Source of the DNA: Limnochordia bacterium
Lineage (GTDB): Bacteria > Bacillota > Limnochordia > Darwinibacteriales > DTU012
Assembly (NCBI GenBank): GCA_007116995.1
Contig: SKHL01000030.1
Span: 11,525 to 75,524, forward strand
Direction: 5' to 3'
DNA: 64,000 bases
Below are positions 8,646 through 55,245 of the stretch, piece after piece (the first letter of the stretch is position 1; every line of letters begins with the position of its first letter). Under the pieces are notes generated by a model. The model worked only from the letters and a program-made list of their open reading frames with translations. It was not told where the DNA came from and did not search any database. A program made the translations under genes and the position numbers.

Positions 8646-8703
8646 GTAAATGACCCCTCTCTAATTTATCTGTCTATCATTACTATCTCCCAACTCCACT
8701 TTA

Positions 8704-8733
8704 AGTATACCATACAAATATATACAAGTCAAT
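8704..8733 (-). promoter_or_regulatory. Sigma70/sigmaA-consensus early promoter, copy 1 of a conserved 45-bp element
   Basis: Coding strand reads TTGACT-17nt-TGgTATACT (-35 at 8727-8732, -10 at 8704-8709). Embedded in the block gtattgacttgtatatatttgtatggtatacttaaagtgg, repeated almost identically at six sites. Confidence 0.7.
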
Positions 8734-8791
8734 ACGAAAATGAAAAAAATGAGACCAGAGATCCCATTTTTCCTATAGTATTTTTTCCAAA

Positions 8792-9355
8792 TCACAGATC
8801 GTACTTTCTCCTAATCAGTAGAAATGTAGCTAAACCATGTAGAAGATTTTTGTAAGACCCTAAATCAAACGGATTACTCGTACTCTCCCACTTAGCCCTC
8901 TTCCTCTTCGAGTAATTATACATCAAAAACCCCGCCTTATTCGTGTTAAAATTAACAGAAACAAAAGGGATAAAATTATTTATATCATCAGTATACCTCT
9001 CTACGTCTTTTACGAATGTATCCACGTTAAAAAATACACCCATCCTATTCTTACTATCCAAGTACGAATCAATAAATTTTTGATCAACTTCTTCGTCCTG
9101 AATATAAGGGTCGAGGTAAATATAGCTTTTTCCCATACCCACTCTCATTCCGATAACATACACACCGTCTTTTAACTTTTTGACCTCGACCGCTGAAACA
9201 TCTATATTTAGACTAACGTTATTTTTCGCTGAAAACCTTCTACCCAAAGTGTTCAGTACTAGTACCGAATTTAGAAACTTCTTTTTCTGTAAGATATTTT
9301 TAACGAACCTAAGTATCAAATTCATGAACTTTTTATGTTCCTGTTCAACCACCAA
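8792..9355 (-). CDS. Paralog family member 1 (unknown function)
   Basis: N-terminal NLILRFVKNILQKKKFLNSVLVLNTLG aligns with the N-termini of the next three ORFs. Confidence 0.55.
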   Translation of the reverse strand: MVVEQEHKKFMNLILRFVKNILQKKKFLNSVLVLNTLGRRFSAKNNVSLNIDVSAVEVKKLKDGVYVIGMRVGMGKSYIYLDPYIQDEEVDQKFIDSYLDSKNRMGVFFNVDTFVKDVERYTDDINNFIPFVSVNFNTNKAGFLMYNYSKRKRAKWESTSNPFDLGSYKNLLHGLATFLLIRRKYDL

Positions 9356-9364
9356 CCCAACCCC

Positions 9365-9988
9365 CTAAACCTTCAATTCCATAGGTAAGAAAAATAGTTC
9401 CGGTCTATCCTTCGGATTTTTAGTCCCATAATTAGATGAAAAATATTTAGGTAGTATGAGTGGGTCTGTGAATATCCGATCCTCTAAACCATGTCTTTCC
9501 ACGTAAACAGTGTACGATCTCATACCATATGTCCCCACAACACCCGCAACCGTAGACCCATCCTCTCTCAAACAAAATAACGGCAAAACGCTCTTCCTAC
9601 CACTAAAGAATGAATCAAATTCCTTGTTAACACTATTCGCTACAGATTTAGGGTCTGGTTTGTACACCTTAACAGCCTGAATTATCTTATCTTTAGTATC
9701 CTCATCATCTATTTTATTGTTGAGAGTAAAACTGAAATCACAATCTTCATGTTTAAAGTCAAATGAAGAACTAGATACGTCCATGTAAATAAAACTAAAC
9801 TTTTTCCCCATATAAAACTTCACTGAGTTATGTCCTGGAACAAATTTAATAGGCATCGTAAGGGTTCCTTCCGGACTCGTACCTACCTTAACCTTCACCC
9901 TCCACACCGTCCACTTTCCTGTTGAAGGCTTATTAAAAAATGTATTCAAAGTCTTAGTGAACATAGACAATGTTTTCTTGTTAATCAC
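9365..9988 (-). CDS. Paralog family member 2 (unknown function)
   Basis: MINKKTLSMFTKTLNTFFNK... N-terminus and the F-I/S-Y-I/M-D-L/V-S/T-G-S segment are shared with neighbours. Confidence 0.6.
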   Translation of the reverse strand: MINKKTLSMFTKTLNTFFNKPSTGKWTVWRVKVKVGTSPEGTLTMPIKFVPGHNSVKFYMGKKFSFIYMDVSSSSFDFKHEDCDFSFTLNNKIDDEDTKDKIIQAVKVYKPDPKSVANSVNKEFDSFFSGRKSVLPLFCLREDGSTVAGVVGTYGMRSYTVYVERHGLEDRIFTDPLILPKYFSSNYGTKNPKDRPELFFLPMELKV

Positions 9989-10007
9989 TTAAAAGTCACC
10001 ACCTAGT

Positions 10008-10550
10008 TTATTTTGTAAAATACTGTAGATAATTTAACGGGATAATTGAGAAAGACATATATCCTGTTAACGCATCTCTAACGTATGATTTCATATCTAA
10101 AGGGTTTATTCCCTGTCCCAATAGTTTCAAACTCATCTTACGTAATTCCCAAGGAGAAGAATCACCCGGCAAAGTATAACTCGTACTAGACCCATCGTTA
10201 TTAAGAAATACTACCGGAAGTATATTCAACTTAGTATCTAGACTCTTAAACTCCCTCGGAAATACATGCCTAATCTCTCTTCGTTGTACCGTCTGACTTA
10301 TTACCTTCTCCTCTAAATCACGACAGAATGTATCATCAATTAAGTCATCTAACTCACCCTTAAACTTAAATCTACTTCTAATGACCCCACTAGGTGTGAT
10401 ATTAACTCTAAACGAACCCCCAGACAGATCAATATAGATAACACTATAATTCTTTCCATAAATATACTGATGCTTATACTCTCTCAGATTAACCCAACAC
10501 ATAAAAGATATATGACCAAACTCCACATACCCTGTTACCAAGATTTGCAT
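10008..10550 (-). pseudogene. Paralog family member 3, with an in-frame TAG replacing a conserved Trp; N-terminally truncated or disrupted copy
   Basis: Upstream of ATG 10550 the same frame encodes (V)INEKTLSMICKVLNKKLINSHP-TAG-GEMQILVTG. This aligns to MVSNKILSLMCKVLDRRLQKGTPWQYMYVLISG of the next paralog, with TAG opposite W. TAG is a genuine stop elsewhere (verified at 3462 and 6882). A GTG with RBS GAGGTGAG lies at about 10615. Confidence 0.5.
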
Positions 10551-10652
10551 TTCACCCTAAGGATGAGAATTAATCAACTTTTTATTTAGTACCTTACATA
10601 TCATAGATAGAGTTTTCTCATTAATCACTGTCTCACCTCACTAACTGACTTA

Positions 10653-11935: not shown

Positions 11936-12922
11936 CTATATATAGAATTCCGACCTAGCTATAGACGAAATTACTCCGTAGTAATTTTTCATAGTGAAAG
12001 GAAACCCAGCCGCATACGGATGACCCCCACCACCAAACTGACCGGCAACCTTACTTAAGTCAACACTATCTTCCAATTTATGAAACCCATTCCTCCGAAG
12101 AGAAACCGACAACCTATTCATGTTAATGATGAAAATAAACAAGAGTTCCTTATCCCTAGAGAACACATACTCCGCAGTCTCAGACGGATACTTCTCTGAA
12201 AACGCTAATCCATAGTATACCGGAACTTCATTCTCCCTTTTAAACTGAAACCGATATACCCTTACACCCTTCGTATGTTTATCTCGTATCTTCGTTAACG
12301 TACGAATAACCGCCTCTTCCACATCAGAAAACTCCACTACCGGATTCATAATAAACCGAGCACGAAAATCACATAAACCCAAATCCTTCAGAAGACAGTT
12401 TAATTTATCAATCTTCTCCTGAGAATCCAAATATTGTTGACTCGTTCTTCCCTTAGAATCCCATAAGTCCGTTAAATATACTAACTCATGATACCGTAAT
12501 AAATTTATCTTTAATCCCTCTAACTCTTCATTATTCTCACACTTACCTATAACCCAATTATACACCAATAACGACGCACTATCTCCCTCTCGTACACACA
12601 TCCAATCAAAGTCCAAATTTTTTCCATCAGAGCTTAAATTTTCCAACGCTGACTGATGATGATCTAATAACACCTTAGAATTAGGGACGGAATCCAGTCT
12701 CTCCGCTACTCTCCGACTCACACTAATATCACAAATAAAAATTGTAGTTTCTACATCATACCGATATGAATCTAAATACTCTTCAACCTTCTCATCTATA
12801 TCATGATACCCACAACTCTGAGAAGTGATTGTATACCCTAACCCATGATAATACTTATACGCTACCGTGTTTGAAACAATCCCGTCCAAATCAGTATGAT
12901 GAAAAATGATAACCTTAGACAA
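11936..12922 (-). CDS. DHH-DHHA1 phosphoesterase (NrnA / RecJ-core-like nanoRNase or exonuclease)
   Basis: DHH motif I HHTDLDGIVS, motif III LLDHHQS, and DHHA1 GGGGHPYAAGF near the C-terminus. Size (328 aa) is typical of NrnA-type bifunctional oligoribonuclease/pAp phosphatase. Confidence 0.8.
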   Translation of the reverse strand: MSKVIIFHHTDLDGIVSNTVAYKYYHGLGYTITSQSCGYHDIDEKVEEYLDSYRYDVETTIFICDISVSRRVAERLDSVPNSKVLLDHHQSALENLSSDGKNLDFDWMCVREGDSASLLVYNWVIGKCENNEELEGLKINLLRYHELVYLTDLWDSKGRTSQQYLDSQEKIDKLNCLLKDLGLCDFRARFIMNPVVEFSDVEEAVIRTLTKIRDKHTKGVRVYRFQFKRENEVPVYYGLAFSEKYPSETAEYVFSRDKELLFIFIINMNRLSVSLRRNGFHKLEDSVDLSKVAGQFGGGGHPYAAGFPFTMKNYYGVISSIARSEFYI

Positions 12923-22349: not shown

Positions 22350-23498
22350 CTAAACAGCTATAATCAACCGATTCTCCGCCCGAGTTATCCCCGTATATAA
22401 CCATCTCTTCTCATTATCCCGGCAGAATCTCTTCTCATCATACAGTAATACGTTACGAAATCCTGACCCCTGGCTCTTATGACACGTTAGGGCATACCCG
22501 AAATCGAACCAACATATGTTCCTGTTATCATTTAAATTCTTTTCATCCTCCAAACCCAGAAAGTCATGAGCGTCTACAATTAACCGATTGAAGTACATAC
22601 CTTCTTCCATAAAGTCCGGTCTAAAATCTAACTCCATCAGTCTCTTATCATGATTAATACCGTGAATCTTCGTGACATACCCCATCAACCCGTTAATCAT
22701 GGGATACCCTTCTAGAGTCAGATCCCATATATTTTTACCAGAAATAATCTTATCGTTAACTAACGGATACTCAGAATCAAACCCAAGTAATTCCCTAACC
22801 TGATTATTCAACTTTCTACGAGTTCTATGAGTACCACAGATAACCTGAGACGCCCCCAACAACATCTTATCTGTAACATCCTTTTTCCGAATCACCACTA
22901 CGTCATCACCATAACTACCTACCTGTAACTTCTTCCCCTGTCTCACCAACATAGATACTCGAATAATACTACTACACTCCGCCTGTCTATGAACCGTATC
23001 TAAAAACACGTCCGGATCATCCAGATACGTGTTATTCTTATGTTTAACCGGAGGCAACTGACCCGGATCCCCTATCGCAATCACCGGAAGACCAAACGAA
23101 AGAAGATCTTTCATCATTTTCTCCGGTACCATACTAATCTCGTCCACCACCACTAACTGAATACCATGTTCAAGAGTATCCTTTAGACGAAATTTCATAT
23201 CTTTTAGTCTCCGATTACCTTCCACCCTAACCCCAGAAGACTCAAAATCGTACATCAGTCTATGAATCGTAGTAGCAGGACAACCTCTCTGATTTAATAC
23301 CAAAGAGGCTTTTCCTGTGTACGCACAAAAATGTACCCCCGTAATCCCAATACTTTCTACCATCTGTTTTACAATCTCTGTTTTACCCGTGCCGGCATAC
23401 CCGGCTATCGTAAATACCTGTCTATTACCCAACTTATACCATTCTGTAGCTTTCGCAATCGCCCGTTTCTGATCCCCTGTTAAAATTACTTCAGCCAT
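22350..23498 (-). CDS. SF1 DNA helicase, Dda/RecD-like
   Basis: Walker A IAGYAGTGKTEIV, motif Ia AYTGKASLVL, Walker B LVVVDEISMV, motif III GDPGQLPPV, motif V/VI GYALTCHKSQGSGF, and ...LYTGITRAENRL. Confidence 0.85.
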   Translation of the reverse strand: MAEVILTGDQKRAIAKATEWYKLGNRQVFTIAGYAGTGKTEIVKQMVESIGITGVHFCAYTGKASLVLNQRGCPATTIHRLMYDFESSGVRVEGNRRLKDMKFRLKDTLEHGIQLVVVDEISMVPEKMMKDLLSFGLPVIAIGDPGQLPPVKHKNNTYLDDPDVFLDTVHRQAECSSIIRVSMLVRQGKKLQVGSYGDDVVVIRKKDVTDKMLLGASQVICGTHRTRRKLNNQVRELLGFDSEYPLVNDKIISGKNIWDLTLEGYPMINGLMGYVTKIHGINHDKRLMELDFRPDFMEEGMYFNRLIVDAHDFLGLEDEKNLNDNRNICWFDFGYALTCHKSQGSGFRNVLLYDEKRFCRDNEKRWLYTGITRAENRLIIAV

Positions 23499-25679: not shown

Positions 25680-26081
25680 TTAACAATCAAATCCACAGTG
25701 TTCACATCTCATCCGAGTAACTTCCTCAGATGCCGGAGACCCCCAACACTCTCCACGATATTCCCTTTCATTCCAGACAGCCAATCCACCAGTCCCACAC
25801 TCAGGACAAAAATCATCTTTTATTAGATTACTTTCTACTTTACCTATCTCATATGTGATTTCCTTCAGTCTGTCACTGTCTGTTCCAATATTCCGTAGAT
25901 ACATTGAAACAACCCTCAGACTCTCCAGATACCCGAACTCATCATGTACATCCTCACTAAAACCTGACTCGATAACCTCTTTTAAACTGTTGATTAACTT
26001 CTTTTCCTCAGTTACTTTCCGTACCAATGTATTTGTCATGTCTGTAAGACCCCTTTCTAAGTTATGATATTTCTTCCTCAC
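25680..26081 (-). CDS. Hypothetical protein with C-terminal zinc ribbon
   Basis: CPECG...CEHCGFDC at the C-terminus; 133 aa. Confidence 0.45.
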   Translation of the reverse strand: MRKKYHNLERGLTDMTNTLVRKVTEEKKLINSLKEVIESGFSEDVHDEFGYLESLRVVSMYLRNIGTDSDRLKEITYEIGKVESNLIKDDFCPECGTGGLAVWNEREYRGECWGSPASEEVTRMRCEHCGFDC

Positions 26082-26196
26082 TACTATCTTATCCCGACCA
26101 CAGCTTAATTATACCATAGATCGTCTATTTTTTCAAGAGAAAATAAAAAAATAAGGATACTAAGATAGCACCCTTATTTTTTATCTGTGTTTTTCC

Positions 26197-27441
26197 TTAC
26201 TCAGAATCAACGTATAGAACTGACTTAAACGAATCCGATACCACTCCGATACCGTCTTTATTTAAGATCAATCCAACCATCGAATCCTGAGAAAATACCT
26301 TCAGTAACGAACGAAGTAAGTTCGACTGAATAGATACGTCACCATTCAACACTTTCGGAGAATCGTTAGGCGCACCCATAAGTACCATGTTAATATCTTT
26401 TCTCTTATCCTTCTTCTTAATCGACGCAGAAATAAATCCATCCTCTGTATAATTAAAGAAGATCCGAGAAATACTTCCATTCACCGTGTTTGACGCATGA
26501 TCTGCAGCCTTCGCTAACTGTGCGTAGTTCACATATACCGGAGAATTCGATTTAATAAGAGTATCTACTGAGTCCAACATAGTCTTCGGAGGAGCATAAT
26601 CCGCAACACCCACACTGTACACAAAATCTTTCGTAGATAAGAAGATTCGATTCTCCTGTCTGTGTACGTCAATCTCTTTCGACTCACTACCACTCGTTAA
26701 AACATAGAGAATCTGAACATCTTTAATACTCAGATCCATCTTAGGGAACTTCTCCCCATCAAACATCGCCACACTAATCAAATAAATCGACATAGCACCC
26801 TTATCAGAAAAGAAAATTCTCCTCTGAGACGGTGTGACACCCGAGTTAGCTAACGGATACAGGTTTTTTAGAACCTGAAAGAATGTATTTGAAGTTAGAC
26901 TACCCAGAGACTCCTTTTCCCCATCTACACTAAACTCTAACTGATCCTCCTGTACGTCAACAATATCAACCTCCGCATCTCCACCCATAACCTTTAAGAA
27001 ATACGAACCATCTTTCTTATACAGTGTAAATGAAGATCCACATAATTTTACCAGCTCACTAATGACCGGCAAACTAATAGGGATAAAGTCCTCTAGTACA
27101 TTACTAGAATTAAGTAGTGTAATCGCCTTCTCAACATAGATATCCACGTCCGTAATCGTAACCCATAACTGATTCCCTTTCACCTTTAGACCAATAGTCC
27201 TCGCAACAACATCACGACCCGAACCCTTAGACACCACATTCGCGACCTTTAAAATATCCGATATTTTCTTCGTAGGAACACGAATATGTTCCTCATCAAT
27301 CACAACCTCTTCTTTACCAGAAAAAGAAATATCATCTTCTTCCGTATCTTCGTCTGAATCTGTTAGACCTAAAAGATCGTCTAATGTTGTGTCCTGATCC
27401 AGATCTTCCCTCTCAAAATCTTTTTCGTTGACTTCTGACAT
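26197..27441 (-). CDS. Hypothetical 414-aa protein with acidic N-terminal tail (sliding-clamp-like candidate; weak)
   Basis: N-terminal 45 aa are D/E-rich. The remaining roughly 370 aa have an alternating beta-strand-like pattern and a length compatible with a DnaN-type clamp, but no diagnostic motif. Preceded by a CCGTATA motif at 27482-27497. Confidence 0.45.
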   Translation of the reverse strand: MSEVNEKDFEREDLDQDTTLDDLLGLTDSDEDTEEDDISFSGKEEVVIDEEHIRVPTKKISDILKVANVVSKGSGRDVVARTIGLKVKGNQLWVTITDVDIYVEKAITLLNSSNVLEDFIPISLPVISELVKLCGSSFTLYKKDGSYFLKVMGGDAEVDIVDVQEDQLEFSVDGEKESLGSLTSNTFFQVLKNLYPLANSGVTPSQRRIFFSDKGAMSIYLISVAMFDGEKFPKMDLSIKDVQILYVLTSGSESKEIDVHRQENRIFLSTKDFVYSVGVADYAPPKTMLDSVDTLIKSNSPVYVNYAQLAKAADHASNTVNGSISRIFFNYTEDGFISASIKKKDKRKDINMVLMGAPNDSPKVLNGDVSIQSNLLRSLLKVFSQDSMVGLILNKDGIGVVSDSFKSVLYVDSE

Positions 27442-31007: not shown

Positions 31008-31008
31008 A

Positions 31009-33227: not shown

Positions 33228-33446
33228 AACCCCTCTCTATGTTATATACGGACACTAATCCAATAGTTTTAAATTAGGTTCAAACTCTACTATATACGTC
33301 TTACCACACTCACGACAATGTAAAAACAAAATGAATGTGTTATCATCTACTTTCTGCGTCTCTCCCGCACAATCTAAATTCGTATCACAAGAACAGAACA
33401 TTGACGTTTCATACACCACCCCTATATCTCCCCTCACATTTAACGA

Positions 33447-33656
33447 TTATGCTAAAACCGCCTCAAACTCTTCAATCCACTGAGTATCTATCGTATGTCC
33501 AGTACCTTCAACATCACTCTCTAGGGCTACACGGTCTTTCATTGGAGGATACCTATAGTGAATCTCTGTTACATTCTTATACGTCTGTTCCAAAATACCG
33601 TTCTTAAAATACGGACTATCCTTCGTAAATGTAACCTTGACGTTAAACATATCCAT
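33447..33656 (-). CDS. Small early protein
   Basis: 69-aa ORF directly downstream of sigma70-like promoter copy 2 (33730-33759). Confidence 0.45.
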   Translation of the reverse strand: MDMFNVKVTFTKDSPYFKNGILEQTYKNVTEIHYRYPPMKDRVALESDVEGTGHTIDTQWIEEFEAVLA

Positions 33657-33729
33657 CTCCCCCTTCTAATTTTAAAACAGTCTTTTCTTCGTCACCCCTC
33701 AATCTGTACTATTTCCTAGTTCCACTTTA

Positions 33730-33759
33730 AGTATACCATACAAATATATACAAGTCAAT
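33730..33759 (-). promoter_or_regulatory. Sigma70-like early promoter, copy 2
   Basis: Same 45-bp element: -35 TTGACT, 17-nt spacer, TGgTATACT; downstream of hairpin 33774-33791. Confidence 0.7.
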
Positions 33760-33798
33760 ACTGTTAGAAAAAAGAGTCTCACCTGAGACTCCATAACA

Positions 33799-35192: not shown

Positions 35193-35296
35193 TAAAGGGT
35201 AGTCATGTTCTAACCTATCCTGTATAGTTTTATATATAAAAAGCCCTAGATAATTAGGGCTTTCTAAATAGTCTATACTTTACCATGACTACCGTT

Positions 35297-35635
35297 CTAT
35301 TCTATATTGTACACAACCACCCTAATCCTACCAACCGCATGTTCCTCTTTTAACGTAAAAGACACAGTATAGAATTGTCCTTCTTCAAATTCCTGATCAA
35401 CCTCAAATGTGTAGAAATACCCATTATCCTTACTCGAAACCACAAATGTAATCGACTCTACAAACCTATTCTCCAAGAAGAACCCCGAGACTTCTAGTTC
35501 TCCCCCACGAAAGTAATGACTCACAACAGTAAACCCACTCGGCTCAATATACACAGGAATTTCTACAGGAACCTCCACAATAACCTCAACAGGAACATCC
35601 ACATAAATTACTTCCTTATCAACACTACCCCCCAC
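35297..35635 (-). CDS. Paralog of lipoprotein 35724-36080 (unknown function)
   Basis: VESITFVVSSKDNGYFYTFEVD aligns with VDTLTFIVDSRSSREVYTFKIE of the neighbour. Confidence 0.5.
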   Translation of the reverse strand: MGGSVDKEVIYVDVPVEVIVEVPVEIPVYIEPSGFTVVSHYFRGGELEVSGFFLENRFVESITFVVSSKDNGYFYTFEVDQEFEEGQFYTVSFTLKEEHAVGRIRVVVYNIE

Positions 35636-35723
35636 ACCCAGCCACCAACAAAGCTAAAATAAGTACTACAATCCACTTTTTCAATAAAAACACATCCCCC
35701 TATCTCTTTATTTAGTATACTAT

Positions 35724-36080
35724 TTAATATACGGACAATCTAACCGTTCCTGAAGTATAACTTCCGAGTCTGATTATAAAACTACGTGATTGATTTCTAC
35801 GAGTATACGTCTCAATCTTAAACGTATAGACCTCTCTAGAACTTCTCGAATCAACAATAAATGTCAGTGTATCCACCCAGCCACCATGAACAAAGTACCC
35901 ATCAATCACCAGTTCATTATGTCTGTTCACATAGTAGTCTGTTACCCGATACACCGAATTACTAGGGTATTCATACTCTACGTCAATATAGACCGTAGTT
36001 ATATGATTCATATTACAACCTGTCAACGTGATCATCAACATAAGAATTAAAATAGAAATACAAAATCTGCTCATACCCAT
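35724..36080 (-). CDS. Predicted lipoprotein (signal peptide plus lipobox LTGC)
   Basis: MSRFCISILILMLMITLTGC: hydrophobic signal with lipobox L-T-G-C. Confidence 0.55.
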   Translation of the reverse strand: MGMSRFCISILILMLMITLTGCNMNHITTVYIDVEYEYPSNSVYRVTDYYVNRHNELVIDGYFVHGGWVDTLTFIVDSRSSREVYTFKIETYTRRNQSRSFIIRLGSYTSGTVRLSVY

Positions 36081-36150
36081 ACCTCCCTGTCTTACGTTTA
36101 CGTACCTACTCTTTTACCCTTTACCGTCTTACCGTACTATAATTCTGTAA

Positions 36151-36780
36151 TCACCGGCTCAGGAAATGAGTAAATAAAGCAGACTTTCCAGTCTTCTTAT
36201 CCACAACCTTGAAATGTCTCTTTACTACATGTTTCTGTACCTCTTCCGTCGGAAACGTCCACGGAACCACTACCTCTTTAATCTCTTTACCAAAAACACC
36301 CGCCAAAACTTCCAGTTCCTCAGAAGAAACTTGAACCAAATCCGTACCTTCCCAGTTCTTCATTCGTAACATACCACCTTTCTCAGGCACATCCCACGGT
36401 ACCGACTGTACCGGCTGTTTCCAGTAGTCATTACTTTGATAAATATTACCAAGCAATCTCATCCGATACCCGGCAGAAAATAACTCGTGTAACCCAACAA
36501 ACCGCCCGTCCTTCTCCGCAATTCCAAACATATAATTCTTGTAGAATATTCTCCCCCTCACAACCAACTCATTTAGAGTGAGTTCAACGTAGTCACCCTC
36601 CCAAAAACGAGTTTTAGTATCAATATCAAAATGTACCAGTTCTCCAACTGTAGAAGGATCTACTTTTACTCTCTGTTTTTTATAGAGAATATACCTCACG
36701 TTATTCATTTTACAAATTAAACTTCCACAAACCCAAGACTTATACCCTAGAGAATACCCTCTGAAAACGCGCTTTTTCAT
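36151..36780 (-). CDS. Hypothetical protein, possibly YopX-like
   Basis: N-terminal RVFRGY..., VKVDPSTVGELVHFDIDTKTRFWEGDYVEL is loosely YopX-like. Weak. Confidence 0.3.
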   Translation of the reverse strand: MKKRVFRGYSLGYKSWVCGSLICKMNNVRYILYKKQRVKVDPSTVGELVHFDIDTKTRFWEGDYVELTLNELVVRGRIFYKNYMFGIAEKDGRFVGLHELFSAGYRMRLLGNIYQSNDYWKQPVQSVPWDVPEKGGMLRMKNWEGTDLVQVSSEELEVLAGVFGKEIKEVVVPWTFPTEEVQKHVVKRHFKVVDKKTGKSALFTHFLSR

Positions 36781-36781
36781 T

Positions 36782-37063
36782 CTAGTTTCTCCTTTCCATT
36801 ACCTTACCAATCTCTTCATAAATATCCTTAAAACTAGCTCCGTTCTTCATGAGAAATACAATATATTTCCCACAACTTTCAATCTGACAATCCTGCAACT
36901 GTATATTCATCTCCCCTAACCTCAGATCCATTCGGATCATTAACCGTAAAAGAAACCAGGCAGACCTACATCTAGTAAACTGATCTTCCGTCTGATCTTC
37001 GAAAATACGAAAATTCGTATCAAACTCCACTATACTTTCCGTTATATCTCTTAAGTCATCCAC
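36782..37063 (-). CDS. Hypothetical protein
   Basis: 93-aa ORF. Confidence 0.4.
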   Translation of the reverse strand: MDDLRDITESIVEFDTNFRIFEDQTEDQFTRCRSAWFLLRLMIRMDLRLGEMNIQLQDCQIESCGKYIVFLMKNGASFKDIYEEIGKVMERRN

Positions 37064-37692
37064 CCACCCAACACCCCTATTCCAAATCTATCTTCCCGAG
37101 ACTTCTCCTTATCCCGTAAACGTCTTAGTTTCTTCACGACCCAAGAACTTACCCAGGAATCGGAATCCCGTTTCCACCGACCCGCCTTCCTATGTAAACT
37201 ATTAATCTCCTTCAAATTATCTACACAGATACTATCCCAGATATCGAAGTAAATCGTATCATACTTCATTTCCGGTTTCCATGTGAATATATCGTCACAG
37301 ACAACCATCAACTTAGGGTGTCTATAGTAAGGTTCGACCAAGTTAATTACGTCCTGACTCTTCTCGATAATCGTTACACTTGTAACATCTTCCTTATCTA
37401 GAATAGGCGGTACAATAAGACCAATCCCCAAACCCGCAATTAAAACATCTCCAAAAGAATTCTCAACCACATCCATGTTCGTCGCTCTCTCCATATCCGT
37501 ATCACTCATCATCAAAATGTTATTGATAAATAGACGAGTATATGTACCCGGAGAAACATACTCCCTCCGAATAACAGAGAACCGAGACTGATCCTCTGTT
37601 ACTTCAAAATGTTCGATACGAACATTACCAGACGAACCCTCAGGAACAATCTCTGACACCTTTCGATACATAACCCAACACTCCCTCTCCAA
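37051..37692 (-). CDS. Spermidine-synthase-like / class-I SAM-dependent transferase fold protein
   Basis: LFINNILMMSDTDMERATNMDVVENSFGDVLIAGLGIGLIVPP...VTIIEKSQDVINLVEPYY...KLMVVCDDIFTWKPEMKYDTIYFDIWD parallels SpeE blocks (L.LDG..Q..E.DE..YHE...H...VLIIGGGDG...V..VEID..V......Y...P.......DG......YDVII.D..DP). The GGGDG loop is degenerate (GLGIG). Confidence 0.45.
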   Translation of the reverse strand: MERECWVMYRKVSEIVPEGSSGNVRIEHFEVTEDQSRFSVIRREYVSPGTYTRLFINNILMMSDTDMERATNMDVVENSFGDVLIAGLGIGLIVPPILDKEDVTSVTIIEKSQDVINLVEPYYRHPKLMVVCDDIFTWKPEMKYDTIYFDIWDSICVDNLKEINSLHRKAGRWKRDSDSWVSSWVVKKLRRLRDKEKSREDRFGIGVLGGWMT

Positions 37693-37880
37693 TTTATTCG
37701 TGAAACAATCTCACCAGAATTTATCTCTCAGATCATATACTACATCAACCAGTATACGAGCAAACCAGAAAATGACCCTAACCACAAAGAAAGGCACAAT
37801 CAGTATCACGTATAGAAGTATCCGTAAAACAGTCTCCAAAACCTCTACCACCCGTCCCACCCCAAAACATCCTCTCTAAA

Positions 37881-38111
37881 CTATTTATCATCATACTTAT
37901 TGACTAACTCCACTAAAGAATCATACCCCTCAAACGGCTCCTCCTCCGTCCAAACATCAACATTAGACAACGCCAACTTCAGACCTTCCAACAACTCTTT
38001 CTTTTCCTCTTTTAGTCTACCATTTTCACACTCTAACCGACCAACATGACTAATCAAATTCGTTTTACCTTCCACTATACACGACCCCTTTCTAATCTCC
38101 ACTCTTCCCAC
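37881..38111 (-). CDS. Small hypothetical protein
   Basis: 76-aa ORF. Confidence 0.35.
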   Translation of the reverse strand: MGRVEIRKGSCIVEGKTNLISHVGRLECENGRLKEEKKELLEGLKLALSNVDVWTEEEPFEGYDSLVELVNKYDDK

Positions 38112-38536
38112 TTTTTAATATGTTCGACCTGTTCCTCAGTAAACCCAAGTTCCCGTACCACACGAACCGCCCACCCATTTGCACGTCTTTCCTTAGCGTG
38201 AGGAATCTCATAACCTTTCCGTCTATACTCCATATTATCCTTATGATGTGATAGTTCATGAGCAATTAGGGCGTATACCTCCGGACTATCCTTAGTCAAT
38301 TTCTCACCGAACCGAAGAAAGATTCTACCCTTACACGTTTCCCACTTTGAACCCCTACCCAACCGAGTCCGATCAGAATTCCAGCATCGACCCGAACAGT
38401 CATTACCATAAACCTTCGAGTTACCCGCCATAACCACAAGACCTCTTACTGTAACCTCCATAACCTTAGAGACCTTATTAAAAATGTCCTTCAGTTCCTC
38501 ATTCGAAATCTTACTCGTATTCTTCAAAATTCTCAA
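38075..38536 (-). CDS. Putative Zn-metallopeptidase (HExxH), second copy of this motif class
   Basis: EVYALIAHELSHHKDN (HELSH). Preceded by CCGTATAGATTAGAGAGGAGAG promoter/RBS block. Confidence 0.45.
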   Translation of the reverse strand: MRILKNTSKISNEELKDIFNKVSKVMEVTVRGLVVMAGNSKVYGNDCSGRCWNSDRTRLGRGSKWETCKGRIFLRFGEKLTKDSPEVYALIAHELSHHKDNMEYRRKGYEIPHAKERRANGWAVRVVRELGFTEEQVEHIKKWEEWRLERGRV

Positions 38537-38576
38537 CCGAATCTCTCCTCTCTAATCTATACGGAGAAACAATAAC

Positions 38577-39011
38577 TTAATCCTCCAGCTTTTTAGATAA
38601 AACCGTAAATCCCCCATACCCTGATAATTCTTTAACCAACCGCTCTATCTCGGCTATTCTTTCTTCTTCCGTCAAAGACTCCGATCTTTTTTTCTCCTCT
38701 TCATTAATTCTCTTCTTTTCCAAAATCCACTCTCGAACCTCTACCGGAGACTCACTCATACCCCTAAATTTTCTATTTGAAGATCCTTTCCATCTACCAA
38801 TACTCGCCACAAAATAACCCACTACATCAGTATCTTCAACCGGAGTATCCACAGCGAAATTATACATTATAGAAAAATCAATGTAGTACTTTAACTCTGA
38901 AGGATCAGCATTTCTATTCTTACTAGTACCTTTCCGAAGTTTCTCTACTAACTCATCAACATACTCCGGATACTTCTTTACCATCTCACTATAATCAACC
39001 CTGATCCTCAT
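38577..39011 (-). CDS. Hypothetical protein
   Basis: 144-aa ORF. Confidence 0.45.
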   Translation of the reverse strand: MRIRVDYSEMVKKYPEYVDELVEKLRKGTSKNRNADPSELKYYIDFSIMYNFAVDTPVEDTDVVGYFVASIGRWKGSSNRKFRGMSESPVEVREWILEKKRINEEEKKRSESLTEEERIAEIERLVKELSGYGGFTVLSKKLED

Positions 39012-39026
39012 AAACTAACCCTCCCT

Positions 39027-39311
39027 CTAATCTCTAAAAAGTTCCTTTAACCCTTTCAGATTCTCAGCTAACTTCTCTGACAAAAACTCACTTTCAGCCT
39101 TCTCCCGAACCTGTTCAATCACATTAAGTTCTCTCTTCTCCCTAGGAGTCTTCCAGATCTTAAGAATTTTCGCCTCCGAATACGACTCCAACTCCTTCCG
39201 ATCAAAACCCTCTTCAACCAGAACCTTAATCCTCTGTTCTTTTAACCAACCTCTCTCACCGCACACTCTAGGGCGTTTAGTCATCTGACTTCCTCCTCCG
39301 AATCTCCCCAT
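39027..39311 (-). CDS. Hypothetical early protein
   Basis: 94-aa ORF (likely start MTKRPRV after RBS GGAGGAGGAAG), downstream of sigma70-like promoter copy 3. Confidence 0.45.
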   Translation of the reverse strand: MGRFGGGSQMTKRPRVCGERGWLKEQRIKVLVEEGFDRKELESYSEAKILKIWKTPREKRELNVIEQVREKAESEFLSEKLAENLKGLKELFRD

Positions 39312-39497
39312 CTACCTCATCCATAGACTTTTTCAAGTTTTTATATACCCCATCTTCCTTCGGCATAAAACCATAACTGTAACCGAACATTAGTTTTTTA
39401 ACTTTTCCCGAGTACTCAACAATACCTCATCCGTCATCTCTTTAACGTCCACTCTCAAAACCCCTTTCTAATCTTAGTGTTACCTAACCCCACTACT

Positions 39498-39527
39498 ATT
39501 ATACCATACAAAACTATACAAGTCAAT
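39498..39527 (-). promoter_or_regulatory. Sigma70-like early promoter, copy 3 (-10 is a perfect TATAAT)
   Basis: TTGACTtgtatagttttgtatggTATAATagtagtgg on the coding strand. Confidence 0.7.
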
Positions 39528-39560
39528 ACGTACAGAAAAAAGAGTGGCTTTCACCACCCC

Positions 39561-39869
39561 TTAAAACTCTTCTTTTTTATACCATTCGTAATCCCGAGAA
39601 ACGAAAACATGTTTTGAATCTCCGATTGTACCGACATACTCCACATTATCCGGAACTTCCCGCTCCTCATGTGTACCTACAATGTAGAATGTACACTCTA
39701 CAATGTCATTATCAAAAGTAGCAACTTCTTCCGTGTCCGTAGTCCAGACTGAGATTACCACATCTTCCCCATTTTCGTCCAAGAAAGTTCCGAGAATCTT
39801 AGAACCCGTACTCATCTTAAACTTCACGTTATCACCAACCACTGTATTCCACACCACTATGTTTTTCAT
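39561..39869 (-). CDS. Hypothetical protein
   Basis: 102 aa; 4-nt overlap with the upstream ORF. Confidence 0.45.
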   Translation of the reverse strand: MKNIVVWNTVVGDNVKFKMSTGSKILGTFLDENGEDVVISVWTTDTEEVATFDNDIVECTFYIVGTHEEREVPDNVEYVGTIGDSKHVFVSRDYEWYKKEEF

Positions 39870-40135
39870 TTACCTCTCTCCTTCCAGACTTTCTTGTACT
39901 CAGACACCAGTTCCTTTGGTATTACTTTTTTCCAACACTCATTTCCAATAGGGTAACACCCCATATCGTCAATTTCAGGGATTTCCGCATAAGGACTAAT
40001 AATCTCATTATCACAGTTCATACGAACCCACTTTGCTCTACGCGGGTGTTTTATTTCTTTCTCGCAAACTATACAGGGTTCCGGATACACTGTAACTTCC
40101 GACCCATTCACAATAATCTTATCGTATTCCTCCAA
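39866..40135 (-). CDS. Hypothetical Cys-containing protein
   Basis: 89 aa; CIVCEK...C...C. Confidence 0.45.
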   Translation of the reverse strand: MEEYDKIIVNGSEVTVYPEPCIVCEKEIKHPRRAKWVRMNCDNEIISPYAEIPEIDDMGCYPIGNECWKKVIPKELVSEYKKVWKERGK

Positions 40136-40141
40136 TATACC

Positions 40142-40546
40142 CTACCCCTCTCCCAGTACACTTAATATCTCTTCACGAGTCCAACCAACCCAATCCATCG
40201 GAATCATACCACCCACAGCGATATCTTTTTCGTCAAATCTAACTAAAATTCGTGTTACACCTATATTCAAGATACTCCACTCCACTCCCACATGTCTATT
40301 GTCATACAAAACACGCAAAACATCTATAGTAGTCATAGTGTTATCGAGTCTATCCGTCTTGTCAATCTCATCCAGCAGATACTCAACCTCTTTTTCATTC
40401 AAAACATCAACGACTCGATACCCATTCTCACGAAGAACCTCAGTCAACTCTTTCTTCGTACCCACGTCCTCAGTAACCATCAGACGTAGATCCCCTTTAC
40501 GTAAGTACCGATAGAACCCATACAATCTCTTACCCATCAACTCCAA
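40142..40546 (-). CDS. Hypothetical early protein
   Basis: 134 aa, directly downstream of sigma70-like promoter copy 4 (40584-40612). Confidence 0.5.
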   Translation of the reverse strand: MELMGKRLYGFYRYLRKGDLRLMVTEDVGTKKELTEVLRENGYRVVDVLNEKEVEYLLDEIDKTDRLDNTMTTIDVLRVLYDNRHVGVEWSILNIGVTRILVRFDEKDIAVGGMIPMDWVGWTREEILSVLGEG

Positions 40547-40583
40547 CCCCTTTCTAATCTTAGTTTATCCACTACCCACTTAA

Positions 40584-40612
40584 AGTATACCATACAAAAC
40601 TATACAAGTCAA
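40584..40612 (-). promoter_or_regulatory. Sigma70-like early promoter, copy 4
   Basis: TTGACT-17-TGgTATACT; hairpin 40629-40644 immediately upstream. Confidence 0.7.
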
Positions 40613-40657
40613 TACCGTAATGAAAAAAGAGTACCGAAGTACTCCTCTTCTCAACGC

Positions 40658-40888
40658 CTACCACCCACCAGTAAGCGAATATTCAATCTTATGTAGATTC
40701 GATTTCTTGTTTAACTTGACCATAAACTTGTCCAAGTCTTTCTCTGTAGAGAAATCCCTCTCAAAGTACTCAATCCTACCAGTATATCCGACCTCACTCC
40801 ACCGAACCATAAATTTATTCGCTTTTTTTCGTGTTATTGATAGTTCATCAATTATACCACTCCGTCTAGTCATAGTACTAACCTCCAA
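40658..40888 (-). CDS. Small hypothetical protein
   Basis: 76 aa; start-stop coupled to 40889-41644; followed by hairpin 40629-40644. Confidence 0.4.
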   Translation of the reverse strand: MEVSTMTRRSGIIDELSITRKKANKFMVRWSEVGYTGRIEYFERDFSTEKDLDKFMVKLNKKSNLHKIEYSLTGGW

Positions 40889-41644: not shown

Positions 41645-41823
41645 CTCAAAAGTAAATTCAGTAACATATATAATCTATACGAAAAAAGAGAGAACCAAGT
41701 ACGTCCTCCCTCCATCTGAAGCGATCCGGTTCCACTTCACAGACCACCCCAGGAACATTCCACCTCAGACTCACTTTTGAGTCTTTTGAAACTAACACCT
41801 GATCGTCCAAAACACCAACCCCT

Positions 41824-42267
41824 CTAGTTTATCAAAGTCCGATAATGAGCTCTTTGTATGTTATACCCACCAGCGACTATCGTAGTGACTGAAACACTCT
41901 TAACATCACCAGTTACCCGACCATCCAACCCACCATTGTCATTACGATAAACATCAAATTCCAAAATGTTGCCAGCTTTTTTCTCCAACCTCCGAAGAAG
42001 ATTCGTCTTTCTGTCCTCCGCATCCCTCCGAAACATTTTCTCCATATCCTCATCTGTCGCCCCAAACCGAATGTCCCGAGCAATATATTTAGGGCAGTTA
42101 TTTCGGAGAAAATTGTCGGCTTTCTCATGAGCCTCACGATACCCCTCTGACAGTAAACCACCATGATCATTACGAATCCGAGTATATTCACTTTTAATGT
42201 TCCGAAACCACTCGAGATCCCGAATAACAGTCTCCTCAATCCACTCATCAAGATTCGTATATTTCAT
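41824..42267 (-). CDS. Hypothetical early protein
   Basis: 147 aa directly downstream of sigma70-like promoter copy 5. Confidence 0.5.
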   Translation of the reverse strand: MKYTNLDEWIEETVIRDLEWFRNIKSEYTRIRNDHGGLLSEGYREAHEKADNFLRNNCPKYIARDIRFGATDEDMEKMFRRDAEDRKTNLLRRLEKKAGNILEFDVYRNDNGGLDGRVTGDVKSVSVTTIVAGGYNIQRAHYRTLIN

Positions 42268-42312
42268 ATCTAAACCCCCTTCCTAACACTAGTATCTCTC
42301 AACCACACTCTA

Positions 42313-42341
42313 AGTATACCATACAAAACTATACAAGTCAA
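42313..42341 (-). promoter_or_regulatory. Sigma70-like early promoter, copy 5
   Basis: TTGACT-17-TGgTATACT; hairpin ATAACCCT-GATT-AGGGTTAT at 42356-42375 upstream. Confidence 0.7.
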
Positions 42342-42393
42342 TACGTACAGAAAAAATAACCCTGATTAGGGTTATTTATATGAGTCTCAATCA

Positions 42394-42696: not shown

Positions 42697-42936
42697 CTAC
42701 TGTATTAAATCCTCTTCTTCAAAGTAACTTATGTCTCCCAATTTCTCACAAAAAACCTCTATCTCTAGTACATCACTATCTTTTCTATAATCATAATTGT
42801 AATAGACCCGATCTATCTCATACATAACTCCACTAACAGTCAAAATCTCCCCCACCAAAGGAGACGAATTAACCGAATCCCACTCGACTGTACTCAACTC
42901 CACATCACCACAAATAAAGAATAATCTAGTTCTCAT
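42697..42936 (-). CDS. Small hypothetical protein
   Basis: 79 aa; ATGA overlap with tdk. Confidence 0.4.
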   Translation of the reverse strand: MRTRLFFICGDVELSTVEWDSVNSSPLVGEILTVSGVMYEIDRVYYNYDYRKDSDVLEIEVFCEKLGDISYFEEEDLIQ

Positions 42937-43541
42937 ATACTCTCCCTCCCCGACCTCTCCCTACTAAAAAATCGAGAAAGAAAATCCTTTCTACAAACCG
43001 GAACATACTTATCATTTCCACCAATCTCAATCTGATCCCCGTCTACCACGATCTCACCATTTTCGTCCGTTCTCATATTAAAAATCGCCTTCCTATCACA
43101 GAACCAACAAATAGTCTTCACTTCCTCAATCGAATCAGCATATACTAATAGATGATAGCTACCCTCAAATAAGTTCCCCTGAAAATCAGACTTCAGACCA
43201 TAGCAAATGACCGGGACATTATGTGTATCCACAATCATAACCAACTGCATAATATGTTCATATGTAAGAAACTGAGACTCATCTACCAGTATACAGTCAA
43301 TCGCCCTCGACTCTAGTCCTAATTTCAAAATGTCCTCAATATCATCATTCTTACTAATAACAACCGCACTACGACTCATCCCCATACGAGACGTTACCTT
43401 ACCAATACCATACCGATCATCAATACTAGGGGCAAGTACCACTACGAACTTCCCCCTCTCTTCATAATTATGAGCGATTTTTAAAATCTCAACCGACTTA
43501 CCCGCGTTCATAGTAGAGTACCGAAAGTATAGTTTCGCCAA
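42933..43541 (-). CDS. tdk: Thymidine kinase
   Basis: P-loop YSTMNAGKSVEIL, Walker B ILVDESQFL, and the Zn-binding lasso CWFCDRKA...CRKD; 202 aa. Confidence 0.85.
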   Translation of the reverse strand: MAKLYFRYSTMNAGKSVEILKIAHNYEERGKFVVVLAPSIDDRYGIGKVTSRMGMSRSAVVISKNDDIEDILKLGLESRAIDCILVDESQFLTYEHIMQLVMIVDTHNVPVICYGLKSDFQGNLFEGSYHLLVYADSIEEVKTICWFCDRKAIFNMRTDENGEIVVDGDQIEIGGNDKYVPVCRKDFLSRFFSRERSGRESI

Positions 43542-51293: not shown

Positions 51294-51686
51294 TTACCAC
51301 TCATAATTACGAATTTGTACGGGACCATCTTTAGTTTCCTCTTTCCATCTCTCTTTAAGAAACCTCTCTACTCTCAAGTAATCAAAAAACCCAAAAGTCA
51401 TACCGACCCCATCAAACATAAAAATCGAAGCGTGAACCTGTGATAGCGGATAATCCTCCCCAAAAAAAGAATTGGAGTATCTGTTTTTGACTTTCCATTC
51501 TCTACTCTCAAACTCCCTTATAAATATCTCAAACGTACCCCGACCAGACTTCTCCGAGTTGTTATTCACCGCCTCAAAGTGAAATCTCCAACTCCCCACT
51601 ACTAAAAAAACTTGTATCACTACTAGTAAGAGTACTATACACAAAACCAGAAATGCACCGTACAATACCGGACCCCAATCTAACAC
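51294..51686 (-). CDS. Membrane-anchored hypothetical protein
   Basis: N-terminal TM YGAFLVLCIVLLLVVIQVFLVV. Confidence 0.45.
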   Translation of the reverse strand: MLDWGPVLYGAFLVLCIVLLLVVIQVFLVVGSWRFHFEAVNNNSEKSGRGTFEIFIREFESREWKVKNRYSNSFFGEDYPLSQVHASIFMFDGVGMTFGFFDYLRVERFLKERWKEETKDGPVQIRNYEW

Positions 51687-51707
51687 CTCAACACCTCAAC
51701 ACCTCCC

Positions 51708-53970: not shown

Positions 53971-53990
53971 CTACCTATACGGAAAAAAGA
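53971..53990 (-). promoter_or_regulatory. CCGTATAGG motif upstream of the NADAR gene
   Basis: CTTTTTTCCGTATAGGTAGG about 30 nt before ATG 53939; after hairpin 53989-54012. Confidence 0.45.
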
Positions 53991-54012
53991 GACCGACCAT
54001 CAGACCGGTCTC
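53989..54012 (-). terminator. Hairpin terminator after gene 54000-54326
   Basis: GAGACCGGTC-TGATGGT-CGGTCTC then TTTTTT. Confidence 0.5.
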
Positions 54013-54326
54013 CAAATATCTGACCAATGTTCCCCTGTCTCCTCACCCCACTGACTTCTAGGGGCAAGTTCCTGACCCGAGAAATTGAAATCCAGACCAC
54101 ATTCACATGTATTCGTGAAGTTACGACATTCGACCTCTTCACCACAATCACATGTAACAACCACAATCACCTTACTGTGAGTAACTGTCATACCCTCCGG
54201 AACACTGTCCTCATAGTTCTCCTGAAACGAATGGGCTTTTTCCAAGTCACTACACTTCACACTATACTCCCTAAACTCATCAAAACTAGAATCCGCCGCA
54301 AAAACCTCAACAAGATACTTCTTCAT
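54000..54326 (-). CDS. Cys-rich hypothetical protein
   Basis: 108 aa with CDCGEEVEC...CEC. Confidence 0.4.
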   Translation of the reverse strand: MKKYLVEVFAADSSFDEFREYSVKCSDLEKAHSFQENYEDSVPEGMTVTHSKVIVVVTCDCGEEVECRNFTNTCECGLDFNFSGQELAPRSQWGEETGEHWSDIWRPV

Positions 54327-54393
54327 TGAAAATCCCCCTCCGATTTTTCCATCTTCAATTTAGAAACGTCTCAACCCATCCAAAACCTCTCCC

Positions 54394-54858
54394 CTACTCT
54401 AACGCGTAATTGGTATCAGACGGAAATACCTCAACATACGCAGAACCAACACCAGCTAATCCCTTCCCACTCCCAGTAATGTATGCCCAAGCAGGCTTTT
54501 CAACGTACCCAAGTCTGTACCCTTTCTTCTCCAAAGTCTTTTCTTTAACACCAGGATTTACCCACTTAACCTCTCCAAATCTATCTACCACCCGATACGC
54601 ATACCCAAACCGAGTCTTACACAAGTTATCAGAAGCAATCGTCCCATCAAGATTCAGTAACACCTCAAACTCAGACAACCCACCATTCTCCAAGATTTCA
54701 ATCTTCGTCCGTAGTAACTCTATACTCAAAGTCGCACAATGAGCAGATACGAAACAACCACTCAGTTCCAGATCCCCTCCAACAACCTTCTCATGACGAT
54801 CATCCGCTCTTTTAACAGCACCTTCCAATTCAACCCGTAAACTCTCTATACGTGTCAT
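54394..54858 (-). CDS. Hypothetical early protein
   Basis: Start re-assigned to MTRIESLRVEL (ATG about 54858) after RBS AGAGAGGGG. The longer tracked ORF overlaps promoter copy 6 (54903-54931). Confidence 0.5.
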   Translation of the reverse strand: MTRIESLRVELEGAVKRADDRHEKVVGGDLELSGCFVSAHCATLSIELLRTKIEILENGGLSEFEVLLNLDGTIASDNLCKTRFGYAYRVVDRFGEVKWVNPGVKEKTLEKKGYRLGYVEKPAWAYITGSGKGLAGVGSAYVEVFPSDTNYALE

Positions 54859-54902
54859 TTTAAGTCCCCTCTCTAACGTTAGTATCACCTGACCACAGTT
54901 TA

Positions 54903-54931
54903 AGTATACCATACAAAACTATACAAGTCAA
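54903..54931 (-). promoter_or_regulatory. Sigma70-like early promoter, copy 6
   Basis: TTGACT-17-TGgTATACT; hairpin AGACCTTCA-AAT-TGAAGGTCT at 54948-54967 upstream. Confidence 0.7.
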
Positions 54932-54966
54932 TACCGTAATGAAAAAAAGACCTTCAAATGAAGGTC

Positions 54967-55245
54967 TTACTTTGTTTCGAAGTGTTTTTTTAGTTCTTTC
55001 TCACATCCCTTACACAGAAAAGTATCCTCAAACCCAATCTCCACTCTCTCCAATTTATCTAATTCATCTCCCTGTAACCCGCAAACAGCACAGCTTGTAC
55101 CCTCTTTTCTCAAAATAATAGAATCCTCATTAACATGAATAGAAATCGCATCTCCCTCCCGAATCTTGAACACTTTTCGTATCTCTTTAGGGATAACAAT
55201 TCTACCTAAATCATCAATCCGTCTTACAATTCCTGTCGATCTCAT
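54967..55245 (-). CDS. AbrB/SpoVT/MazE-family swapped-hairpin DNA-binding protein with C-terminal Cys pairs
   Basis: The N-terminus TGIVRRIDDLGRIVIPKEIRKVFKIREGDAISIHVNEDSIILRK is the AbrB-N signature, followed by CAVCG...CKGCE. Confidence 0.6.
   Translation of the reverse strand: MRSTGIVRRIDDLGRIVIPKEIRKVFKIREGDAISIHVNEDSIILRKEGTSCAVCGLQGDELDKLERVEIGFEDTFLCKGCEKELKKHFETK

Follow-up and report, generated by a model that had tools for sequence, protein, structure and literature searches.

What keeps six copies of a promoter nearly identical within one stretch of phage DNA, each of them placed just behind a terminator-like hairpin? The question is raised by a 64,000-nt segment of contig SKHL01000030.1 (hereafter the window, always meaning the whole of this segment), which comes from an uncultured phage of Bacillota type with every credible gene on its minus strand. 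A 32-nt core, GTATTGACTTGTATA[G/T][T/A]TTTGTATGGTATA[C/A]T, occurs in the window six times, always on the minus strand, and copy counts given below cover this window only. Here we describe these cassettes and argue that they are probably early promoters for the RNA polymerase (RNAP) of the host, set in insulated terminator-promoter-leader units and held alike by selection together with exchange between the copies.

The core has the layout GTA-TTGACT-TGTATAnnnTTGTATGG-TATA[C/A]T. Its 29-nt part, TTGACTTGTATA[GT][TA]TTTGTATGGTATA[CA]T, is matched on the minus strand at 8704-8732, 33730-33758, 39498-39526, 40584-40612, 42313-42341 and 54903-54931 (forward-strand coordinates) and not once in 100 dinucleotide-preserving shuffles of the window, which confirms that the six copies proposed by an earlier sequence-only reading are real. 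A consensus scan likewise agrees with that reading in finding TTGACT, a 17-nt spacer, TGg and TATACT in each copy, with TATAAT in copy 3. The same reading had described a near-identical block of 45 bp; conservation does run well past the hexamers, but the invariant block measures 32 nt, GTA included, and the 40-mer taken from that reading recovers five of the six copies at no more than three mismatches, copy 3 (39498) diverging past the -10. Looser likeness between copies continues through the leader up to the Shine-Dalgarno (SD) sequence, over some 90 nt in all: a repeat finder aligns the family over 93 nt (66-77% identity), and copy-to-copy blastn alignments cover 73-99 nt at 76-87%. When either half of the core is searched for alone, with two mismatches allowed, just the six known sites are returned in the window, and no decayed or half cassettes.

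All six copies are intergenic and co-oriented with the genes, 40-75 nt before a strong SD and start codon, and each follows the same order: hairpin with T-run, 6-8 variable bases, core, leader, SD, start codon. Cassette 1 (8643..8773, minus strand, as are all that follow) has its hairpin and T-run at 8743-8773, its core at 8704-8735 with the -35 TTGACT at 8727-8732 and the -10 TATACT at 8704-8709, the SD AGAGAGGGG and an ATG at 8645. Cassette 2 (33654..33792) combines a hairpin at 33773-33792 and a core at 33730-33761 with a longer leader that ends at ATG 33656, and cassette 3 (39451..39562) a hairpin at 39539-39562 and a core at 39498-39529, with -10 TATAAT, with a GTG start at 39453. The corresponding positions are approximately 40621-40653, 40584-40615 and ATG 40537 (or TTG 40546) for cassette 4 (40535..40653); 42354-42377, 42313-42344 and ATG 42267 for cassette 5 (42265..42377); and 54947-54968, 54903-54934 and ATG 54858 for cassette 6 (54856..54968).

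The hairpins have stems of 8-14 pairs with 6-7 T after each, and their predicted RNA folding energies lie between -10.8 and -14.3 kcal/mol (z-scores of -2.0 to -4.2 against shuffles); all six are thus stable G+C-containing stem-loops with a T-run directly after, the form of an intrinsic terminator. The T-run ends 6-8 nt before the conserved GTA, that is, 9-11 nt before the -35, which bears out the placement about 10 nt upstream of the promoter that had been claimed. Succession of terminator and promoter is a general layout across the window and is not peculiar to the six cassettes.

What follows the hairpin has the look of a strong host-type promoter, and at the level of sequence this part of the earlier claim stands: near-consensus hexamers, a TRTG/TGn element, and the right place and orientation. 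All six copies agree with the sigma70-type consensus at 10-11 of 12 positions (5/6 at the -35, 5-6/6 at the -10) and have the TG, so that each has hexamers 17 nt apart, inside the usual 17 +/- 1 nt, an extended -10 TGn and a co-oriented gene at a plausible leader distance, as a promoter for a housekeeping sigma factor should. The TATG at -17 to -14 we take to be the Gram-positive "-16" element. With the -10 hexamer counted as -12 to -7, the T-run of the terminator falls at about -50 to -45 and may also serve as an UP-like A/T tract. An invariant T-G stands at the predicted -1/+1, and the leader begins TAAnnTG[T/G]GGT..GG.GATA.TAA. A conserved structure in the leader RNA was considered and rejected: RNAalifold on 13 leaders gives no pairs, the leader being purine-rich and unstructured, and an Rfam scan of the window returned two tRNAs only, with no family match in the leaders.

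On the reading favoured here, each cassette would be a composite regulatory unit of about 90-130 nt. An intrinsic terminator, hairpin plus T-run, would close the upstream transcription unit; 9-11 bases further on, a near-consensus sigmaA/sigma70-type promoter would initiate at the invariant G, 7 nt past the -10; and the transcript would open with a purine-rich, unstructured leader with a strong SD ahead of the first start codon. Unmodified host RNAP should read such cassettes upon DNA entry, and for that reason they would be early promoters, each driving a short insulated unit of 1-4 genes, mostly orphan genes.

The age of the copies can be judged from a relative of the phage, represented among contigs of the European Nucleotide Archive (ENA) by the 30.4-kb L002 and by L010, a second contig of the same phage. 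Its helicase and exonuclease are 83% and 82% identical in amino acids to the homologues in the window, and L002 aligns to window positions 13075-49741 at 68-85% nucleotide identity. L002 carries four cassettes (6726, 7967, 10186, 10925), and a fifth (L010 3633-3664) precedes the ortholog of the 322-aa gene found behind cassette 1. Four window copies (8732, 33758, 40612 and 42341) have positional orthologs: cassette 1 pairs with L010 3633, the 322-aa gene being orthologous too; cassette 2 with L002 10925, where the hairpin is homologous and kept, its T-run lost; cassette 4 with L002 7967; and cassette 5 with L002 6726, downstream of the thymidine kinase block. Cassette 3 has no counterpart in the relative, in which all genes of window 36151-40888 are missing.

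Among the 11 copies (six in the window and five in the relative), the core varies at only four of its 32 positions, namely a central triplet of neighbouring spacer bases and the fifth position of the -10, and the other 28 are invariant; TATGG stands immediately 5' of the -10 in 11/11. Between the members of the four ortholog pairs the core is identical at 29-31 of 32 positions, and in the three L002 pairs the 40 nt upstream of it are 60-70% identical and the 45-nt leader 58-73%. Four of 12 comparisons at the central three spacer bases differ, against 0/56 at the other 14 (P about 2e-8 at 27% divergence). As an internal control for spacer conservation we used a seventh sigmaA-type promoter (26040..26182, minus strand; hairpin 26146-26182, TTGAAA-17-TGgTATAAT at 26108-26136, leader start TAAGCTGTGGTCGGG, ATG 26039), which agrees with the cassettes in the -10 and at the beginning of the leader but not in the -35-proximal part of the spacer. 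Its ortholog, also on L002 (17507), keeps the hexamers and TG and has 4/17 spacer bases changed.

Since four copies are positional orthologs with diverged flanks, the cassettes are older than the divergence of the two phages; and since the control promoter changed at 4/17 spacer positions and the cassettes at 0/56 outer ones, most of their spacer is under an extra constraint to which that ordinary sigmaA-type promoter is not subject. The sequence-only reading had offered recent duplication, or selection for an additional factor-binding site, as explanations. The first, taken alone, is excluded as the cause of identity by this comparison, in which the 32-mer persists although the flanks of the orthologs are no more than 58-73% identical, and the pattern favours position-specific selection together with inter-copy exchange. 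A stricter version, in which the copies arose lately, by duplication or by the spread of a mobile sequence, and are under no selection past the hexamers, could appeal to the very high identity of the paralogs, to the lack of decayed copies and to one pair in the relative whose upstream flanks agree exactly over 36 nt, as after a recent local duplication. It is nevertheless largely refuted by the orthologs, and we consider it highly improbable: the same core persists at four positional orthologs among flanks and genes that are 58-85% identical, spacer substitutions fall only at the three adjacent positions, and most copies, having unrelated hairpins and leaders, did not arise by duplication of whole units.

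What the frozen part of the spacer is for is a separate question. It contains two similar words, TTGTATA and TTGTATG, separated by the three free bases, and with the upstream GTA they give GTAT words at a 10-bp phase from -38 to -13, a triple-phased pattern found in the window in the six cassettes only. Such phased repeats look like a tandem protein-binding site, and could equally be an optimum of shape or strength for RNAP. The invariant spacer might thus be primarily an operator, with two or three phased GTAT/TTGTAT[A/G] repeats bound by a phage or host protein that turns the whole set of early units off, or on, at once; this would add to the favoured reading, and we regard it as possible, if doubtful. 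It fits the confinement of all spacer variation in 11 copies to the 3-nt linker of the tandem repeat, the extension of the 10-bp phasing by the invariant GTA before the -35, the different spacer of the control sigmaA promoter, and the presence in the window of several small proteins of DNA-binding type (AbrB/MazE-like, HTH_7 and TFIIE-like matches). It fits less well that no candidate binder was identified, that the TATG-G part of the block coincides with the known -16/extended -10 element, that T4 early promoters show a non-canonical consensus without any known extra factor (PMC2988021), and that phasing of short AT-rich words can stem from selection on spacer shape or flexibility. That the repeats are a dedicated site, for an early-shut-off or activator protein of the phage or for a recombination helper in cassette exchange, seems to us unlikely; if true, it would make these elements a mobile regulatory cassette with its own specificity factor, of a type so far described from T4-like phages of Gram-negative bacteria and here found outside them.

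Exchange between copies, which the sequence-only reading did not mention, is supported by chimeric flanks and by concerted change in the -10. The copy at L002 10186 shares 36 exact upstream nt, including the whole hairpin, with the copy at 7967, and 18 exact leader nt with the copy at 6726, and it shares neither the leader of 7967 nor the upstream flank of 6726; the junction lies inside the core. In the window, two types of upstream sequence (CATTACG, …TTTTTTCATTACG and CTGTAC, …TTTTTTCTGTAC) and two types of leader are seen in all four combinations. The -10 is TATACT in 5/6 window copies versus TATAAT in 5/5 copies of the relative, so that paralogs agree against orthologs, a signature of concerted evolution. 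The near-identity of the cassettes would then have two causes: purifying selection on nearly the whole 32-nt core, including the two phased TTGTAT[A/G] spacer repeats, for which recognition by sigmaA does not by itself account, and recombination or gene conversion between copies, through which the cassettes may act as conserved linkers for swaps of cargo.

The phage of the window and its 82%-identical relative co-occur in one sequencing run, SRR7083930 (L003, L006, L011; the same sample as ERZ27301260). Logan contigs of this run start or stop exactly within cassette cores (L006, which equals window 33732-39527, and L011), and these assembly breaks independently confirm the repeat nature of the cassettes.

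The genes behind the cassettes are for the most part short open reading frames (ORFs). Cassette 1 is followed by the single 322-aa gene (7677-8645) and a terminator at 7650-7675 (unit 7650..8645), and cassette 2 by a 69-aa ORF (33447-33656; 58% identical in the relative) and a 60-aa ORF (33255-33437; unit 33255..33656). For cassette 3 the sequence-only reading had named the ORF 39027-39311, which is wrong: the first cistron is a 20-codon ORF that starts at GTG 39453 (39390-39453), followed by ORFs of 37 aa (39277-39390), 85 aa (39027-39284) and 144 aa (38577-39011; unit 38577..39453), all four missing from the relative. Cassette 4 precedes ORFs 40142-40537/46, 39866-40135 and 39561-39869 (a weak DUF7352 match; unit 39561..40546), a three-gene module bounded by cassettes 4 and 3 and without counterpart in the relative. 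Behind cassette 5 stand a 147-aa ORF (41824-42267), missing from the relative, and a terminator (41685-41713; unit 41685..42267), and behind cassette 6 a 154-aa ORF (54394-54858; phrog_5855, function unknown), a 108-aa ORF (54000-54326) and a terminator (53988-54013; unit 53988..54858).

Compared with Pfam and PHROGs, the cargo proteins gave no informative family match. The 322-aa protein belongs to no Pfam family and matches PHROGs only at E 0.001 or worse; a homologue search found itself and a 73%-identical protein in the relative, nothing else, and a single-sequence AlphaFold (AF2) model was unusable (pLDDT 41). The description of the cargo as host-takeover genes is an analogy rather than a finding. 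Seven of eight cassettes in the comparable region precede a first ORF that the two phages do not share, and at three orthologous cassette slots the first genes are unrelated. Small ORFs are variable in general here, 60% of them being non-shared.

A second promoter-like motif, quite different from the cassettes, occurs at about 16 intergenic sites. It consists of a run of 5-6 T and then CCGTATA[T/G]A (TTTTTCCGTATA[T/G]A), and the C of CGTATA lies, in forward-strand coordinates, at 58154, 53981, 52748, 51720, 45884, 41681, 38563, 33250, 32368, 30996, 29160, 28860, 27489, 25635, 15751 and 7638, always on the minus strand. The motif often adjoins a terminator, 15-45 nt before the SD, and precedes replication and other genes, among them those for the sliding-clamp-like protein, a methylase-like protein, a deformylase and a transglycosylase. 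With a position matrix, 14 of its sites score at least 21 bits, against no more than 15 bits for all else, and it is kept at orthologous sites of the relative (L002 3422, 8297, 12170, 15311 and 16149; L010 4723). Between the site at 51720, of the form CCGTATATA, and the next gene, an 8-bp unit, GAGGTGTT, occurs three times (51682-51705, minus strand), giving three tandem SD-like GAGG.

A candidate reader of this motif, by analogy with late promoters that consist of a -10 only, is a 188-aa sigma-like protein encoded at 2870-3436 on the minus strand, just downstream of the clamp loader gene. It has a match to Pfam Sigma70_r2 alone (27.5 bits, cutoff 24) and no PHROG, PDB or deposited-phage match, and it recalls the late sigma factors that have region 2 only. 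In the favoured reading the replication genes carry this other motif, T-run plus CCGTATA[T/G]A, and are probably transcribed with the help of the sigma-like protein. Within one genome, the promoters that a phage-encoded sigma factor or RNAP recognises are typically highly uniform, and the uniformity of the cassettes, together with the presence of the sigma-like gene, could suggest that they too are promoters of a phage-encoded sigma factor or polymerase and merely resemble the housekeeping consensus. We give this very little credence: the TTTTTCCGTATA[T/G]A class is far more numerous, equally uniform and the natural target; the cassettes score negative with its matrix; no RNAP subunit genes were seen among the window proteins; and the sigma-like protein, consisting of region 2 only, is unlikely to read a promoter of -35/TGn/-10 type. 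The idea that the cassettes are dual promoters, in which GTATA[G/T] of the spacer would represent the second motif, was rejected: the 16-site matrix scores every cassette negative, at rank 245 at best in the window.

Do such cassettes correspond to anything already described? The promoter-early stem-loops (PeSLs) of the T4-like phages RB49/phi1, T4/PST and KVP40/nt-1 span about 100 bp: a stem-loop comes first, a sigma70-like early promoter stands directly 3' of it, and the element ends in an SD and start codon; they adjoin ORFans that differ between close relatives, and their copies recombine (Arbiol et al. 2010, PMC2839356; Comeau et al. 2014, PMC4122927). The authors of that work speculated on a recombination helper and never found one. 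The elements described here fit the definition, being composite units of terminator, promoter and SD-start with similarity over about 100 nt, and they resemble PeSLs further in their many copies per genome, in the small orphan genes alongside and in chimeric copies with a crossover inside the element, the mark of recombination among PeSLs. They differ in that their core is far more uniform (28/32 positions invariant, spacer included), that the stem-loops are not conserved in sequence, that the signals are of Gram-positive style (the TRTG -16 motif, GGAGG/AGGGG SDs), that the tie to variable cargo is not statistically secure, and that the copies are dispersed among replication genes and not clustered. 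The best-supported view is that they are of this known kind, PeSL-type early-promoter cassettes, here in a new lineage.

Kinship with T4-like phages is not seen at the level of similarity: in the genes tested there is none, in DNA or protein, to sequenced T4-like phages, and the clamp and sigma-like proteins have no tblastn match. The window carries genes for a clamp loader, a sliding clamp, a Dda-type helicase, an Mre11-like exonuclease and the region-2-only sigma, and the gene for a 46%-identical relative of the helicase (L007) adjoins Gp23/gp13/S77 genes. The early "uber" promoters of T4, with UP, -35, TGn and -10 elements, serve to capture host RNAP right after infection and have a consensus outside the canonical elements (Hinton 2010, PMC2988021). 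The cassettes are similar as host-polymerase promoters with all recognition elements at once and a consensus beyond the canonical ones. T4's promoters form a consensus family, whereas the copies here are near-identical; there is no evident A/T-rich UP element here save the T-run of the terminator; and the -35 is TTGACT, where that of T4 early promoters is reportedly GTTTAC-like. Gram-positive "-16 region" (TRTG) extended -10 promoters were reportedly described by Voskuil and Chambliss in 1998, and TATG at -17 to -14, right before the -10, is a feature that the cassettes share with strong Bacillus sigmaA promoters; TRTG, however, covers only 4/14 of the invariant spacer positions.

In the Bacillus phage SPO1, the early operons are short, contain small genes and cluster in a 12.4-kb terminal region; their strong promoters are read by host sigmaA, and phage sigma factors act later (PMC6873191; PMC13401047). 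A programme of early sigmaA followed by a phage sigma in a phage of Gram-positive bacteria is what the two systems may have in common. The copies here, in contrast, lie among replication genes over at least 46 kb, between 8.7 and 54.9 kb, and do not form a takeover module of that kind, nor is there homology between the cargo proteins and the takeover genes of SPO1.

Several points weigh against the reading of the cassettes as selected and exchanged early promoters of host RNAP. Promoter and terminator activity, early timing and the mechanism of recombination are all inferred from the sequence, and the Bacillota host likewise from the style of the SDs and distant homologues only. The extra constraint on the spacer is not accounted for by a PeSL-type model alone, and exchange between phages could have inflated apparent conservation in a comparison of only two genomes, both from the same samples. 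The gene behind cassette 1, that of 322 aa, is conserved and lies in the replication region, which is not the typical "hyperplastic" setting; many variable islands have no cassette; and the enrichment of non-shared cargo, with P = 0.02 against all genes, is not significant against ORFs of up to 150 aa (P = 0.11).

With these reservations, the analysis provides a testable map of early transcription for a phage lineage without a cultured relative, comprising seven host-type promoters, about 16 sites of the second class, a candidate sigma factor and terminators. It suggests that terminator-promoter linkers at which orphan genes are swapped also exist outside the T4-like phages of Gram-negative hosts. 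Comparison of the orthologs brings out a sharp constraint, with 14 spacer bases frozen and three free. In practical terms, the 32-mer stands out as a candidate promoter part, compact and insulated, for Bacillota, and as a repeat it breaks short-read assemblies of these phages.

The cassette was found nowhere else by exact or IUPAC scans of IMG/VR, JGI metagenomes and GTDB genomes, by INPHARED megablast or in full-text papers. More distant relatives of the phage (L004, L007 and L009; 35-53% GC) have no cassette and other promoter systems. One of them, L004, whose exonuclease is 52% identical and whose G+C content is 49%, has a motif of its own in four copies (2307, 9245, 11751 and 13492), GTAGGTTTTTC and, after about 10 nt, GTGTCGAATATAT, and a gene for a Sigma70_r4 protein adjoins that for its exonuclease; this phage therefore has a different transcription system.

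The window has a G+C content of about 39% and an extreme strand asymmetry, the GC skew being -0.32 to -0.53 in every 2-kb bin and the coding strand purine-rich with very few C; its SDs are long, of the GGAGG/AGGGG types. No deposited phage genome (INPHARED, megablast) matches it at the nucleotide level. Recognisable genes encode a clamp loader (3462-4517), a DHH phosphoesterase (11936-12922), a Dda-type helicase (22350-23498), which is about 40% identical to helicases of Bacillus phages AR9 and PBS1 and of Listeria and Enterococcus phages, a sliding-clamp-like protein (26197-27441), an Mre11-like exonuclease (34122-35192) and a thymidine kinase (42933-43541); further ones were seen in bulk scans of the window proteins. 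No structural genes were identified in the window, in which the edge ORF at about 1-1760 was not searched. This long minus-strand ORF has a Walker A motif (GTGKST) and runs off the start of the window; it is absent from the ORF list, and the first 1.7 kb look falsely non-coding for that reason. A 31-bp unit is repeated three times in perfect tandem at 61100-61192 (93 bp, in frame), in the 3' half of a hydrophobic 58-aa ORF (61108-61284), and may reflect either a recent expansion or an error of assembly. Two adjoining tRNA genes, Ser(TGA) and Arg(TCT), lie at 29700-29878 on the minus strand.

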